64,000 nt of DNA from Promethearchaeota archaeon (lineage in GTDB: Archaea > Asgardarchaeota > Lokiarchaeia > Sigyniarchaeales > SOKP01), in the NCBI GenBank assembly GCA_030603385.1, contig JAUVXW010000002.1, positions 32,001-96,000 on the forward strand, in the 5' to 3' direction. Positions 20,376 through 63,281 of this stretch are shown in pieces (the first letter of the stretch is position 1; each line of letters opens with the position of its first letter). The notes below the pieces were generated by a model. That model was not told the DNA's origin, made no database searches, and was given only the letters and a program-made list of their open reading frames with translations. The translations under genes and the position numbers were made by a program.

Positions 20376-21371
20376 TCATGTTTTATTTTTCCATTTGTTA
20401 AAAGAGCCAAATCCCTCGACTTTTGAAATAACTTGTTTTGTATTTTTATTAAAATTAATTGAGAGAAAATAGGAAGATTTGTTTCGTTTTAGGGATTTAT
20501 GTTGTATACCGTGTGAATAACTTTCAGCCAAAATTAGAACAACATTAATTAAATCTTCACTTTCATGAATAAAAGGAATTATTAGACTCCACTTATGAAA
20601 GAACCTATATTCAGAACTAATTCTTTTAGCTAATTCATAAAAAATCATTTGATTTGAGTCTTTTAAAATAGTCTGATTTACGATGTCTTGCTTTTTCAAG
20701 GAAAAAATAAATCTCTTTTTTAATTTAAATGTGAGGTTGTTATTAGTATTATCATTCTCATAAATTAAATAGAAGAATGGCAAAAAACCAGGGATGTATT
20801 GCTGATTCTTAGGTAAGCTTACTTGAATTATGATTCTTAGTAAAGTTCGAATTCCAAAATAAATAAGGTAAATATATAAGTAGAAAAAAGCAAGATCCAT
20901 AAATACATTATAATAGGGTTTTGTATAGTAATATATAATTAGAACTAAAAGATTTAAACCAGAAAAAGCAGCTAATAATGGGTTGACTGCTCTATCAGCA
21001 AAAAAGCGATACTCTTTTTTGGAAATGGGGTAAATAATCGGTATTTTTGAAGCAGCAAAGAAATCTAAGGAGATATGAATACTATAACCTATAAATCCTG
21101 CGAGCCAGACCTCAGAAAATGAAATATTTCTTAATAGAGATACAACAAAACCAACTATTCCCGTAAAAAATATTCCGACGATATATGAATGGGAACCTGC
21201 TTTATGGGAAAAAAAGTACATTTTCCGTATTTTTTGAAGTGGTTCTAAGAATACATCAAAATCCGGCAGAAATGTCATTATCCATAATAGGATAATCGCT
21301 TCTGGACTAAAAGTAGTTAATGTGAATAATCCCGCTAATACTCCCATAAATATATGTGTGAAAATATCCAT
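20376..21371 (-). CDS. membrane-bound metal-dependent hydrolase (YdjM-like)
   Basis: DIFTH, LPDFD, HKAGSHS, HISLD. Confidence 0.82.
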   Translation of the reverse strand: MDIFTHIFMGVLAGLFTLTTFSPEAIILLWIMTFLPDFDVFLEPLQKIRKMYFFSHKAGSHSYIVGIFFTGIVGFVVSLLRNISFSEVWLAGFIGYSIHISLDFFAASKIPIIYPISKKEYRFFADRAVNPLLAAFSGLNLLVLIIYYYTKPYYNVFMDLAFFYLYIYLIYFGIRTLLRIIIQVSLPKNQQYIPGFLPFFYLIYENDNTNNNLTFKLKKRFIFSLKKQDIVNQTILKDSNQMIFYELAKRISSEYRFFHKWSLIIPFIHESEDLINVVLILAESYSHGIQHKSLKRNKSSYFLSINFNKNTKQVISKVEGFGSFNKWKNKT

Positions 21372-21445
21372 ATAAGGTTTAAAAATAAGACGATATATTT
21401 ATACAATTCTATTAAATTTATAATTTATAGGAGGCTTTCCTATTG

Positions 21446-21480
21446 TCAATCTTTCACTAGCGTTTATTGAAAGACTTCAT
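21446..21480 (-). ncRNA. candidate eukaryote-type SECIS element
   Basis: Minus strand AUGA-AGUCUUUCA-auAAAcgcuag-UGAAAGAUU-GA: 9-bp helix, tandem GA core, AAA 11 nt after AUGA; begins 8 nt after the TAA at 21489. Confidence 0.75.
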
Positions 21481-21488
21481 TCAAATTA

Positions 21489-21965
21489 TTATATGTTTCT
21501 TTTGAGTTCAAAATAATGAGTAAAAGTTTCATTGTTTTTTCCATAGTTTTGCTTAATGATTTTTTTAAATGTACCATAATCTAATCGTTCTTTCATAACA
21601 TCAGCTCATCAATCTGCATGGACTACAATAGTAATATTACTATTGGGATATAATTTAGTTTTAATATCTTCTTGTAAGTTCATAAATTCTCTATTTGGAC
21701 CATATGCGTTTACAGCACAGTCCTCATAAATTCTATCCTCCGCTCCATCCCAAATCAACTGCAAATAGCTATGAATCAAACCCTTATATACGGGGAATAG
21801 AGAACCTTCAGGATTCATATAGATTTGTTTATCTATAGCGCTTAGCGCGTTAACAATAGTTCCATTGTCATCTATATTTATCTCATATTCTCGTCCCTTT
21901 GACAACTTTTTTTCAGGGTCGGGAGCAAAAATTGTTATGTTCACTTTCTTAATTTTAATAATCAC
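21489..21965 (-). CDS. putative selenoprotein (beta-grasp-like fold, ADUU motif, 158 aa if both UGA are read as Sec)
   Basis: ORF-track stop is TGA (21609-11) followed by TGA (21606-08); frame stays open 38 codons (ADVMKERLDYGTFKKII...) to TAA TAA; SECIS-like hairpin immediately downstream. Confidence 0.7.
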
Positions 21966-21988
21966 CTCTAAATAATAATAAAAATAAA

Positions 21989-22396
21989 TTAAATAAGCCC
22001 TTTAGCTTTCAAGAGCCTTGGTAATTCTCTCTTTAGAGTAAATGAAGAAGAAAACTTTTTCTCTCCATCAACTACAATACATTTATTATGTAAATTAAGA
22101 TTTCTTGCTTCTACTGAATTAAGATTCTTAGTATCATAATCGATGTGTTTAATATAGGGTGTAAGTTCGACAAATACTCGATTCATAAACTTGTCCCACT
22201 CACAAGTGCATGCATCTAATGGAACGTAAATGTCAACTTTCAATTTTCCATTATTTTCTTCATTATCTGAGCTACATTTATTTTGAGAACATTGCGTATC
22301 TGAGTGAGCACTACAAGAGTGTCCTGAATAATCTGGCGATGCACGAATTTCTTTCATAACTTCCTCTATTGTTTTATCTATTTCATCATCAGACAT
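21989..22396 (-). CDS. thioredoxin-like CxC protein with Cys/His-rich N-terminus (arsenic cluster)
   Basis: HSCSAHSDTQCSQNKC; VDIYVPLDACTCEW...CIVVDG; directly downstream of acr3. Confidence 0.65.
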   Translation of the reverse strand: MSDDEIDKTIEEVMKEIRASPDYSGHSCSAHSDTQCSQNKCSSDNEENNGKLKVDIYVPLDACTCEWDKFMNRVFVELTPYIKHIDYDTKNLNSVEARNLNLHNKCIVVDGEKKFSSSFTLKRELPRLLKAKGLI

Positions 22397-22468: not shown

Positions 22469-23503
22469 TTATGATTCCCAAAAACCTCGTTTTCTGAGAT
22501 ATCGTCCTAAATAGACAATTGAAAGCATCACAGGTATCTCCCAAAAAAGCCCCATTGTAGTCCCTAAAGCTGCCCATGATCCAATTCCATAAATGGCAAT
22601 AGCAGTAGCAATCGCAATTTCAAAATGACTAGAAGAACCGATTATGACCGTGATAATTGCCTCTCTATACTTCAATTTAATGAGTTTTGTAATTAAAATA
22701 TTGTACCCAACAACAATAACAAACCCTACTAAGAGAGGAATTGATATTATTAACAATAAATCAGGATTACGTATCAGAACATCACCATTTAATGAAAATA
22801 AGACAACTAAAGTTGTTAGTAAGGCAATAATTGATATATTTCCTACAATTGGACGATAAGCGTTATTAAACCAATCTTCACCTTTAGAAGATACAATCAA
22901 TCTTTTACTGATTAATCCCCCTAATAACGGAAGTCCTATAAAAATGAATGTCGAAATTAATAAAAGAAACCAATTAATTGGTATATTTTGAATACCTGTT
23001 AGCAGCATTACCATAGGAGCATAACCAAATATAATTGTTATGGTATTTAGGCTTGTATTAATCACATTTTGCTCTTGGTTACCTTTTGCCATCCAACCCC
23101 ACACTAAAACCATTGCAGTGCAAGGAGAACTGGAGAGTAAAATAATTGCAACAGTTAACTGTCTCATAGTTTCAGAACTACCAGGTAAAAAGATATTCAC
23201 CATCGCCAAGCCAACAAACGGAGCAATAATCCAATTAGAAATAATTGTTAAAATTATTGGTTTAGGATTTCTACCTAATTTTTTCAACTCAGAAGCTTGA
23301 AGATTCAGCATTGCTGGATACATCATTAAAAATAAACAAATCCCAACAGGTACAGAAATTCCACCAATCTGTAAAGAATCAATAGCTTCACTGATACCGG
23401 GGATAATTTGAGAAAAGATAATTCCGATAAGTATACATAGAGCAACCCAAAGGGGCAAGAATTTCTCAAAAAAACTGATTGTGCGACCTTCTTCTTCGCT
23501 CAT
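22469..23503 (-). CDS. acr3: Acr3 family arsenite efflux transporter
   Basis: MMYP, NWIIAP, SPCTAMVLVW, SSHFEIAIA, EIPVML. Confidence 0.93.
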   Translation of the reverse strand: MSEEEGRTISFFEKFLPLWVALCILIGIIFSQIIPGISEAIDSLQIGGISVPVGICLFLMMYPAMLNLQASELKKLGRNPKPIILTIISNWIIAPFVGLAMVNIFLPGSSETMRQLTVAIILLSSSPCTAMVLVWGWMAKGNQEQNVINTSLNTITIIFGYAPMVMLLTGIQNIPINWFLLLISTFIFIGLPLLGGLISKRLIVSSKGEDWFNNAYRPIVGNISIIALLTTLVVLFSLNGDVLIRNPDLLLIISIPLLVGFVIVVGYNILITKLIKLKYREAIITVIIGSSSHFEIAIATAIAIYGIGSWAALGTTMGLFWEIPVMLSIVYLGRYLRKRGFWES

Positions 23504-23624: not shown

Positions 23625-23975
23625 ATGGTTGAACAGAATAAAGACGATATTAAAACACTAATCGAATGTATTGGATTAGATGTAGATGTTCATGAATATA
23701 TAAAAAGTCTAGAAAAAAGCCGTAATGAGATTTTATCAAGAAAAGATTTTAAAGAAAAAGTGATTTCTCATAAAGCACTTGGTCATGGGTCAAGATATTT
23801 AATCTATAATCTAATTAAGAAAAAAGAAATGTGTATATGTGAACTTTCTATGATTATAGATTTAACTCAACCAACTATCTCTCATCATGTAAAAATATTG
23901 GAACAGGCTGGGTTGATAAATGGAGTAAAAAGTGGAAAGTTTATTCATTATCAAGTAAAAAAAAATATCGATTAA
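23625..23975 (+). CDS. arsR: ArsR/SmtB family As(III)-responsive repressor
   Basis: EMCICEL, TQPTISHH, LEQAGLI; divergent from acr3. Confidence 0.9.
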   Translation: MVEQNKDDIKTLIECIGLDVDVHEYIKSLEKSRNEILSRKDFKEKVISHKALGHGSRYLIYNLIKKKEMCICELSMIIDLTQPTISHHVKILEQAGLINGVKSGKFIHYQVKKNID

Positions 23976-24123: not shown

Positions 24124-24387
24124 GTGAAAATAATGGCGAAACTGGTTCCAGATACCGAAGAAAGCATGAATGAATGCAGAAAATTCTGCGGACCTTGTCC
24201 CTCGTTTAAACCAAACAAACTCAATGAGTTTGAGCCACACGCCCTGTTTTGTTCCAGAGGACAAACTGAAAAACCTATGGATCAAGTAGAAGATAAAGGT
24301 TGTAGTTGTTTTGGATGTGGATTATTCTCTCAATATGAGTTAAAGGGTGGATATTTCTGCATGCACGGAATTGAGGGAAGAAAATAA
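24124..24387 (+). CDS. DUF2769-like Cys-rich protein
   Basis: CGPCPSF...LFCSRG...GCSCFGC...GYFC. Confidence 0.75.
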   Translation: MKIMAKLVPDTEESMNECRKFCGPCPSFKPNKLNEFEPHALFCSRGQTEKPMDQVEDKGCSCFGCGLFSQYELKGGYFCMHGIEGRK

Positions 24388-51411: not shown

Positions 51412-51513
51412 GGGCCTGTAATCTAGCCTGGATAGGGTGCCCGGCTTCGGATTTCTCTGAAAGAAGAAAAAGAAGAAACTGGGATGTCGCAGGTTCGAAT
51501 CCTGCCTGGCCCA
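51412..51513 (+). tRNA. tRNA-Arg(TCG) with 27-nt 37/38 intron (51451-51477)
   Basis: CCCGG-CTTCGG^A-CTGGG, BHB helix CTTC/GAAG, GGTTCGAATCC; one U-U mismatch in the acceptor stem. Confidence 0.85.
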
Positions 51514-63146: not shown

Positions 63147-63239
63147 TGCGCCGCCCGGGAATCGAACCCGGGTTACTGGCTGACTTCAATCGGTTCTGAC
63201 TATGGAAGGCCAGAATCCTAACCCCTAGACTAGCGGCGC
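63147..63239 (-). tRNA. tRNA-Gly(TCC) with 21-nt 37/38 intron (63182-63202)
   Basis: GCGCCGC/GCGGCGC acceptor; BHB CTTC-CAT-AGTC...GATT-GAAG-TCA; GGTTCGATTCC. Confidence 0.92.
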
Positions 63240-63281
63240 TTAATATTATAAAAATCACCATTTCTTATAACTTTAGTGATT

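Follow-up and report, generated by a model that had tools for sequence, protein, structure and literature searches.

A predicted tandem-selenocysteine protein family encoded beside arsenite-efflux genes in Asgard archaea

The stretch of DNA considered here (the window) comprises 64,000 nucleotides from a Promethearchaeota archaeon (assembly GCA_030603385.1, contig JAUVXW010000002.1, positions 32,001 to 96,000) and carries, at 21965-21489(-), a small gene that very probably encodes a selenoprotein of 158 residues with two adjacent selenocysteines (Sec), as predicted from a conserved reading frame and a conserved RNA element. The gene is called the UU gene below, as shorthand for its two adjacent in-frame UGA codons. 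The tandem-Sec family to which it belongs is very probably real and apparently unreported. Its members are often found close to genes of arsenite efflux, and a role in arsenic or metal efflux is plausible; the explanation favoured here, in which the product would be both a tandem-Sec selenoprotein and a binder of arsenite (As(III)) or soft metals in the service of efflux, is tentative and stands a little below an even chance.

An earlier account of the window, made from the letters only (the sequence-only reading), had anticipated much of what follows. Its read-through to 158 residues with adjacent Sec, its beta-grasp-like domain, its eukaryote-like 3' selenocysteine insertion sequence (SECIS) element with conservation in orthologous loci, its Sec machinery elsewhere in the genome, its co-orientation with an arsenite permease gene and its novelty have all been upheld by the data given in the sections below; two further points, concerning the place of the gene in its operon and homologues with cysteine, fared differently and are taken up where the results are described. 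Its suggestion that vicinal selenols would suit the binding or reduction of As(III) is still an inference.

The UU gene and its reading frame

The predicted protein consists of a beta-grasp domain, the pair Sec119-Sec120 and a helical tail of 38 residues. The elements of the gene are the following.

21489..21965, minus strand: complete 158-codon coding sequence of the predicted selenoprotein, from GTG at 21965 to the TAA stop at 21491-21489
21606..21611, minus strand: tandem in-frame UGA pair, TGA 21611-21609 and TGA 21608-21606, predicted to be read as Sec119 and Sec120
21492..21605, minus strand: C-terminal tail of 38 codons behind the UGA pair; conserved core RLDxGxFK...YGK...F.HYF
21446..21482, minus strand: putative SECIS of the Loki type (lokiSECIS), with a GA-AUGA core, a 9-bp helix, the 11-nt apical loop AUAAACGCUAG and GA

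Direct reading and translation give a 118-codon open reading frame (ORF; 21965..21612, minus strand) that ends ...VVHAD at the tandem TGA, and automatic annotations all give the gene as a 118-aa protein. After the two TGA codons the frame stays open for 38 sense codons and closes at TAA (21491-21489) followed by a second TAA (21488-21486). In a genome of 31% G+C, where stops make up about 7.8% of random codons, the chance of an open run of this length is p ~0.045. This genome has 797 ORFs of 100 codons or more with TGA as their stop, and in 16 of them TGA is the next codon too; the tandem TGA alone is unremarkable and at chance level. With both figures of this order, the weight of the argument falls on the RNA element and on comparative data.

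Conservation of the frame across both UGAs

A six-frame search covered 301 genomes of the phylum and found homologues of the UU gene in 66 of them. They are concentrated in the window's own family (59 of 68 genomes) and extend into three neighbouring families (4/7, 1/1 and 1/1 genomes); none was found by this search in the other 26 families sampled. Every match bar one short partial contains two (some three) in-frame TGA codons and aligns up to query residue ~153-158, at identities that run from 99% down to 25% over some 90 matches, and both TGAs are retained in 65 distinct members. The tail behaves as coding sequence: its codon variability follows the order position 3 > 1 > 2, and synonymous single-base changes outnumber non-synonymous ones, in both respects as in the upstream domain. 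This coding-type variation, together with a TGA-TGA pair and tail kept in frame, is what sustains the read-through. The sequence-only reading had also weighed the 35-aa MKERLDY ORF as a separately conserved gene; this candidate was ruled out, since an ATG occurs within the first eight codons of the tail in only 29 of the 65 members.

Databases hold the family mostly in a shortened form. A search returned 177 clusters, nearly all of 118 aa, cut at the first UGA and derived from Asgard metagenome-assembled genomes, and the seven 'full-length' forms among them, which read HAD-W-W-AD followed by the same tail, are calls of TGA-TGA under genetic code 4. Near-identical DNA is present in metagenomes of several environments: marine sediment, the subsurface, vents and cold seeps. 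The members fall into the following groups according to the residues around the Sec pair, and the tail core is kept across all the subfamilies and the distant clade.

HAD-UU-AD: subfamily of the UU gene of the window
G-C-UU-EK: paralogous subfamily, with one copy in this genome at C10:102094-102540
U-G-UU: third subfamily
PDAxC-UU-NAV: distant clade, present in the closed 4.36-Mb genome G213, which may come from a culture

The SECIS element

The lokiSECIS, in its published form, consists of AUGA, a 9-bp stem, an 11-nt apical loop and GA (AA in VhuU); A is favoured in the first five bases of the loop, whose last base is an ultraconserved G, usually after A, and the element lies shortly past the stop codon (PMC4989117). 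The hairpin behind the UU gene matches this description on every point. It begins 8 nt past the stops with ATGA at 21480-21477, a 9-nt arm at 21476-21468 and the loop AUAAACGCUAG at 21467-21457, and continues with the second arm at 21456-21448 and GA at 21447-21446; all nine pairs (9/9) are standard, and the hairpin is the minimum free energy structure returned by RNAfold (z = -2.4). Rfam SECIS models, run in both gathering and E-value modes, had no match at the site, as is to be expected because the standard SECIS tools miss Loki elements (Mariotti et al. 2016, PMC4989117).

A strict scan asked for ATGA, a 9-bp stem with at most one mismatch and an 11-nt loop with at least three A among its first five bases and ending AG, followed by GA or AA. 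Over the 3.89-Mb genome it gave 8 sites, against 0-1 in shuffled genomes, and 8/8 sit just 3' of frames with an in-frame TGA; the seven other than the UU gene are behind PrxL (...WUSHC...), HdrA, three VhuD genes, a 76-aa ORF and the UU paralogue. A covariance model built only from five SECIS elements of known selenoprotein genes in this genome (CM R1) gave a single match above noise in the 64-kb window, at 21432-21500(-), with 31 bits and an E value of 3.7e-4, the next-best match in the window scoring 12.8 bits. The search with a Loki model, which the sequence-only reading had suggested as a check, thus recognises the element through a model derived from other selenoprotein genes.

Searched against 62 homologue loci, the same model gave 58 matches; in most loci it picks out the 3' end of the UU gene, but a few of the matches sit behind other genes. 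Across the 58 aligned elements the stem is 94% paired, with compensatory changes in 8/9 pairs, against 39-57% paired at slid control positions, figures that carry a bias towards the structure in that the alignment was fitted to CM R1. By the strict definition a lokiSECIS is present in 58 of the 65 distinct members, 112-144 nt after the first UGA. In the distant clade the element reads AUGA...AUAAAC...GA and overlaps the end of the coding sequence, some copies having a longer apical part.

Two observations concern the surroundings of the element. Just 3' of it the fold contains a further small hairpin, which may be a terminator or a SECIS accessory, and a similar short, G+C-richer hairpin occurs within ~5-10 nt of the SECIS in the other selenoprotein genes of this genome (L080-L084).

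21427..21443, minus strand: second hairpin, 6-bp stem and 5-nt loop (from the fold)

The first stop past the tail is itself UGA in 11 of the 65 members, the remainder having TAA or TAG. In L014:1489-2034 and L032:1501-2015 this stop UGA is the UGA inside the SECIS core GAAUGA, so that one mRNA would have two UGAs read as Sec and a third, ~125 nt later, read as stop.

Sec machinery and the use of UGA

The genome has the means to decode UGA as Sec. A tRNA-Sec (63 bits) lies 200 nt from a SepSecS gene (391 bits), both above curated cut-offs, and at a distance of 5 kb from the two there is an EFSec-like gene (235 bits). The genome further contains a PSTK-like gene, matched over its full length at 148 bits, and a SelD-like gene at 87 bits. 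Elsewhere in this organism UGA is an ordinary stop, and global recoding of UGA was rejected because it terminates 207 of the 1530 long frames of the genome. The window contains two unusual tRNA calls. At 63147-63239(-) ARAGORN calls an odd tRNA whose anticodon has four bases (tcca), and there the tRNA-Sec model scores 31.5 bits, below threshold (63147-63240(-)), and at 51412-51513(+) Rfam gives a tRNA of 102 nt, long enough for an intron.

Absence of a cysteine counterpart

The sequence-only reading had proposed to check whether homologues have Cys at one or both UGA positions: none has Cys at either Sec position among the ~90 genomic matches, the 177 database clusters and 74 relatives retrieved by a profile search of 1.8 billion representatives. 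The usual argument from Cys/Sec pairs is consequently unavailable. Those relatives that extend past the site are either W-W calls or Sec-free proteins, the latter from Bathyarchaeia where the source names one (three of them). The Sec-free proteins read GxC-[IT][TS]-E and have a shorter tail; with Ile, Thr or Ser at the Sec positions, the Bathyarchaeia relatives retain only the preceding Cys, which points to this Cys, immediately ahead of the Sec pair, as the ancestral residue that has been conserved. Within the phylum no Sec-free relative was found with a Bathyarchaeia protein (P0166) as query, which matched only genes of the UU family.

Predicted structure

The protein was modelled with AlphaFold from a 44-sequence alignment in which Sec was written as Cys. 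The model is confident (predicted local distance difference test, pLDDT, 89.8; predicted template-modelling score, pTM, 0.87), and it shows the tail as helical, at a block pLDDT of 80-96 over most of the tail's length and ~72 at the extreme C-terminus. Such a confident helical tail indicates that the tail belongs to the fold; it appears to be needed for a confident single-domain model.

In the model the UU protein is a beta-grasp of the SAMP/Urm1/MoaD-like kind. The best Foldseek matches in the PDB were SAMP1, Urm1 and HVO_2177 (E ~3e-3, probability 1.0, TM by target 0.65-0.68), and VIA-align gave Z values of 5.7-7.4 for a ranking that comprised CysO, SAMP1, MoaD and the transcobalamin beta domain. 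The C-termini of the carriers align to model residues ~117-121, and the Sec pair would accordingly sit, on this superposition, in the place of the sulfur carriers' Gly-Gly. Sequence comparison was less productive. Neither the UU protein nor its 118-aa form had a match in Pfam or NCBIfam at E up to 1, ThiS (PF02597) and Urm1 (PF09138) included for the UU protein in Pfam, and searches of PDB sequence profiles found no match to the UU protein, nor to its upstream neighbour, the CxC protein. The language-model neighbours of the 118-aa product are hypothetical Bathyarchaeota and Promethearchaeota clusters, with ThiS and Urm1 clusters at 0.77-0.81, which serve as a lead only.

Genomic context

The genes around the UU gene are those of a small arsenic cluster.

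22469..23503, minus strand: Acr3-type arsenite efflux permease (SBF family), first gene of the co-oriented run (Pfam SBF, 5.3e-37)
21989..22396, minus strand: CxC protein, 135 aa, thioredoxin-fold core and Cys/His-rich N-terminus, upstream of the UU gene
23625..23975, plus strand: ArsR-family regulator, divergent (Pfam HTH_5, arsR family, 4.1e-13); recurs beside the cluster in relatives
20376..21371, minus strand: YdjM-family membrane protein, directly downstream of the UU gene (Pfam YdjM, 1.9e-16)

The gaps are short, 72 nt between acr3 and the CxC gene and 23 nt between the CxC gene and the UU gene. A 754-nt contig from an RNA-seq library, ~92% identical and from a relative, spans 21512-22222 and covers the CxC gene, the UU gene with both TGAs and most of the tail; it is weak evidence, as DNA carry-over is possible and such a contig demonstrates neither transcription nor translation. 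The core of the CxC protein was modelled at pLDDT 89.5, with thioredoxin and glutaredoxin as top fold matches, and the N-end of its helix 1 holds the invariant CxC, in the position of the thioredoxin CxxC. Its relatives often add Cys-rich N-terminal tails.

The co-orientation with acr3 and the CxC gene is kept across genera. Among 30 loci with 1.5-kb flanks the CxC gene is directly upstream in ~20 and Acr3 present in ~13; among 32 loci with 5-kb flanks Acr3 is found in 21, and Acr3, ArsR or CxC in 26. This linkage holds for the HAD-UU and C-UU subfamilies alike, and in the distant clade the UU gene directly follows a CDF cation-efflux gene in three loci. The sequence-only reading had made the UU gene the last of an arsenic operon: the arsenic context stands, but the last place is uncertain, as the YdjM-family gene follows on the same strand. 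This gene is syntenic in many relatives and may be part of the same unit.

One relative has a longer cluster, made up of ArsR, DUF166, Acr3, a methyltransferase-CdhD fusion, a ferredoxin, CxC, UU, an LMWP (ArsC-type) gene and YdjM. The genome of the window itself has two LMWP-type (ArsC-like) genes elsewhere; neither a glutaredoxin-type ArsC (PF03960) nor an ArsD (PF06953) was found in it.

Several smaller features of these clusters may be recorded. An 87-aa Cys-rich ORF is located beside arsR in the window (24124-24387(+), divergent) and has a homologue beside arsR in a relative (L076:3-107). The N-terminal extensions of the CxC proteins vary and are Cys/His-rich (e.g. SCC..CC..SCC; L019:988-1464, L033:974-1492, L067:2333-2602), and a long extension contains an in-frame stop in two relatives (TGA in L033). 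In the longer cluster (L078:787-4682) the accessory genes, for DUF166, a 554-aa S-adenosylmethionine methyltransferase/CdhD-like fusion and a small 2x[4Fe-4S] ferredoxin, sit between arsR/acr3 and the CxC-UU pair and form an unusual ars accessory set. Strong matches to the SECIS model (34-54 bits) were seen within a few kb of relatives' UU genes at L038:2246-2312(+) and L045:6845-6919(-), and likewise at L043:9311-9385(-), L042:1071-1145(+) and L053:3650-3721(-), indicating that other selenoprotein genes adjoin these clusters.

A proposed function

The following mechanism is proposed. The acr3, CxC and UU genes would form one run under arsenite control, the latter suggested by the divergent ArsR-family gene beside it. 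The ribosome would decode both adjacent UGAs as Sec, directed by the eukaryote-like, Loki-type SECIS in the 3' untranslated region, ~130 nt downstream. In the folded product the last beta-grasp strand would end His-Ala-Asp-Sec-Sec, and the conserved helical tail would pack back on the domain, leaving the Sec pair internal and not at a free C-terminus. Two established facts form the background to this proposal: the preferred coordination of As(III) is by three thiolates or selenolates, and ArsD relies on vicinal Cys. The vicinal selenols, with a third chalcogen, would make a site of very high affinity for As(III) or Sb(III); the third ligand could be Cys83 in the HAD-UU subfamily, the Cys that immediately precedes UU in the paralogous subfamily or, in another subfamily, a third Sec, and soft metal cations would take the place of the metalloid in the distant clade. 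The UU protein might then pick up the toxic ion within the cytosol and, probably with the CxC protein, convey it in the direction of the efflux permease, in a hand-off analogous to that by which ArsD serves ArsA.

The distribution of residues is consistent with such a site. Cys83 is present in 28/28 HAD-UU members, and Val or Ile stands there in 24 of 29 C-UU members; members of the U-G-UU subfamily carry a third Sec. From this near-complementary pattern across subfamilies Cys83 may be put forward as a candidate third ligand. A metal(loid)-binding role of the UU protein is a real if unsettled prospect, somewhat short of probable. The more specific proposal, that an obligate Sec-Sec family lacking a sulfur counterpart acts as a selenium-based arsenite or soft-metal chaperone of Asgard efflux systems, is offered with greater reserve, as a possibility.

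A number of points weigh against this explanation. One member, L041 (DAD-UU, Val83), has no third chalcogen at all. Decoding of two consecutive UGAs should be inefficient, and the PSTK, EFSec and SelD genes score below cut-offs that were curated for models of other lineages. About one third of the long-flank loci have no ars gene within 5 kb, and the genomes compared are kin, so the synteny counts overstate independence. There is no Cys homologue, as far as the relatives compared go, and the explanation does not account for the absence of sulfur substitution; the neighbours of the Sec-free relatives in Bathyarchaeia are unrelated and heterogeneous and provide no functional clue. Finally, a redox role fits the thioredoxin-fold neighbour equally well.

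Alternative explanations

That last role is the serious rival, although on balance unlikely. The UU selenoprotein would be a redox enzyme whose Sec-Sec or Cys-Sec-Sec centre cycles between diselenol and diselenide or selenenylsulfide, is recycled by the CxC protein and acts on arsenate, organoarsenicals or, for repair, As-damaged thiols. Such chemistry would suit a neighbour of thioredoxin fold with CxC at the CxxC position and the ferredoxin gene found in the same cluster in one relative. It would also suit the G-C-U-U of the paralogous subfamily, which recalls GCUG (Gly-Cys-Sec-Gly), the centre of animal thioredoxin reductase, and a genome in which no PF03960 ArsC was found. On the other hand, with LMWP-type ArsC-like genes in the genome, and one adjoining the UU gene in a relative, a reductase appears to be available already; the UU protein has no cofactor- or nucleotide-binding domain; and the distant clade is tied to a CDF pump, for which binding makes sense and reduction little. 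It is the linkage to two unrelated classes of pump (Acr3 and CDF), together with the ArsC-type genes, that favours binding and hand-off over reduction of a substrate. A further alternative starts from the fold. As a ubiquitin-like carrier of the SAMP/Urm1/MoaD type, the protein would hold sulfur or selenium on its Sec pair and not on a Gly-Gly thiocarboxylate, for example to supply selenide for As-Se or metal-Se species in detoxification. SAMP1, Urm1, MoaD and CysO are indeed its best fold matches, with C-termini at residues ~117-121, and the ThiS and Urm1 clusters among the language-model neighbours give a lead in the same direction. However, the UU protein has no Gly-Gly and no free C-terminus, its 38-residue tail being modelled as packed on the domain; it matches neither ThiS nor Urm1 in Pfam, no E1-like gene was seen among the neighbours examined, and Z values below 8 perhaps reflect only the common beta-grasp arrangement. 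A carrier role is thus improbable, and less likely than binding or redox.

The remaining alternative denies the selenoprotein itself: the product would be 118 aa long and end at UGA-UGA, the hairpin would act as a terminator and the tail would either go untranslated or constitute a small gene of its own, or else the UGAs would be read through as another amino acid. This is very improbable. The automatic annotations, all of 118 aa, and the chance-level tandem TGA agree with it, as does the silence of the Rfam SECIS models, which is nevertheless expected of standard tools at Loki elements (PMC4989117). The frame and the tail, however, are conserved across the TGAs in ~90 matches down to 25% identity; substitutions in the tail are of the coding type, and most tails have no conserved start codon. 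The hairpin of AUGA, 9 bp, 11 nt, AG and GA is common only to the selenoprotein genes of this genome, the confident single-domain model requires the tail, and the use of UGA as a normal stop elsewhere argues against global recoding.

Comparison with known systems

Asgard archaea have been credited with seven selenoprotein families, SelD, FrhA/VhuU, HdrA, FrhD/VhuD, PrxL, an AhpF-N homologue and a DsbA-like protein, and the UU family is absent from these published lists (PMC11227280; PMC13188914). A review of May 2026 makes no mention of MoaD, ubiquitin, beta-grasp or a CUU motif (PMC13188914), and further literature searches turned up nothing. Although the selenoproteome of Asgard archaea has had two or more surveys, the family would be invisible to those based on homology: relatives that are known or contain Cys are lacking, and annotation cuts the protein off at 118 residues. 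The genes with a lokiSECIS (PrxL, VhuU, VhuD, HdrA) share with the UU gene the decoding system and the RNA element (PMC4989117; PMC11227280). Multiple Sec residues are also common in Lokiarchaeal selenoproteins, but there they are spaced as UxxU or distant, and are not adjacent as here. The families concerned are unrelated to the beta-grasp UU family, for which no Cys counterpart was found, and they serve energy metabolism or peroxide chemistry, whereas the UU family keeps company with genes of arsenic and metal efflux.

The closest functional parallel might be ArsD, whose ligands are Cys12-Cys13-Cys18. Like the UU protein it is small, soluble and encoded inside an ars operon, with vicinal chalcogens and a third ligand, and the proposed roles are alike in the capture of As(III) and its hand-over to a pump. 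ArsD, however, is a sulfur-based protein of thioredoxin fold whose partner is the ArsA ATPase, whereas the UU protein is predicted to be a beta-grasp with selenols that serves the Acr3 pump; the thioredoxin fold belongs here to the CxC neighbour, whose profile matches no solved chain. With the carriers SAMP, Urm1, MoaD, ThiS and CysO the UU protein shares the beta-grasp, and their reactive C-terminus coincides with the Sec pair. The carriers have a free C-terminal Gly-Gly, which no member of the UU family has, and use a thiocarboxylate, whereas the chemistry of the UU protein would rest on side-chain selenols, with no E1 partner nearby. The low Z values and the lack of Gly-Gly and of a free C-terminus would place it outside their functional class.

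Adjacent chalcogens of the Cys-Sec type occur in animal thioredoxin reductase (Gly-Cys-Sec-Gly) and in the Sec-rich selenoprotein P, against Cys-Sec-Sec or Sec-Sec in the UU family, and sites of this type are high-affinity targets of arsenicals and soft metals. In contrast to thioredoxin reductase, the UU motif is internal, belongs to a small archaeal beta-grasp protein with no flavoprotein domain and is encoded by consecutive UGAs. Among bacteria, Sec has been proposed as a metal or metalloid ligand in MbdU, SaoB/SaoC and Sec-containing mercury and copper transport proteins, whose genes are tied to resistance against heavy metals or arsenic (PMC13188914). These differ from the UU protein in being bacterial, with an intragenic SECIS and motifs of the CU or UxxC type, and none is a beta-grasp with UU.

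If the favoured explanation is right, no earlier archaeal selenoprotein would have had metalloid detoxification as its dedicated task, and the family would be a case of Sec as a probable metal(loid) ligand in archaea and of a use of selenium tied to arsenic resistance in sediment archaea. It would add a family widespread in one Asgard family (59/68 sampled genomes), with a few members in neighbouring ones. EFSec and a eukaryote-like SECIS would here provide a natural case of the efficient decoding of two consecutive UGAs, and the gene a clean natural substrate for the study of back-to-back decoding by such a system. Hundreds of database entries would also have their annotation corrected, as they are at present either truncated or mis-translated with Trp-Trp.

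The 76-aa ORF picked up by the strict SECIS scan lies outside the window (L086:2681-2965, equivalent to G000:C20:5680-5964). It has an N-terminal membrane helix and one in-frame UGA (..GGSS-U-AC..), with a strict lokiSECIS 19 nt past its stop. Of 70 genomes of the family, 16 have weak six-frame matches to it, with one TGA each, and the ORF may thus represent another small selenoprotein that has so far not been listed.

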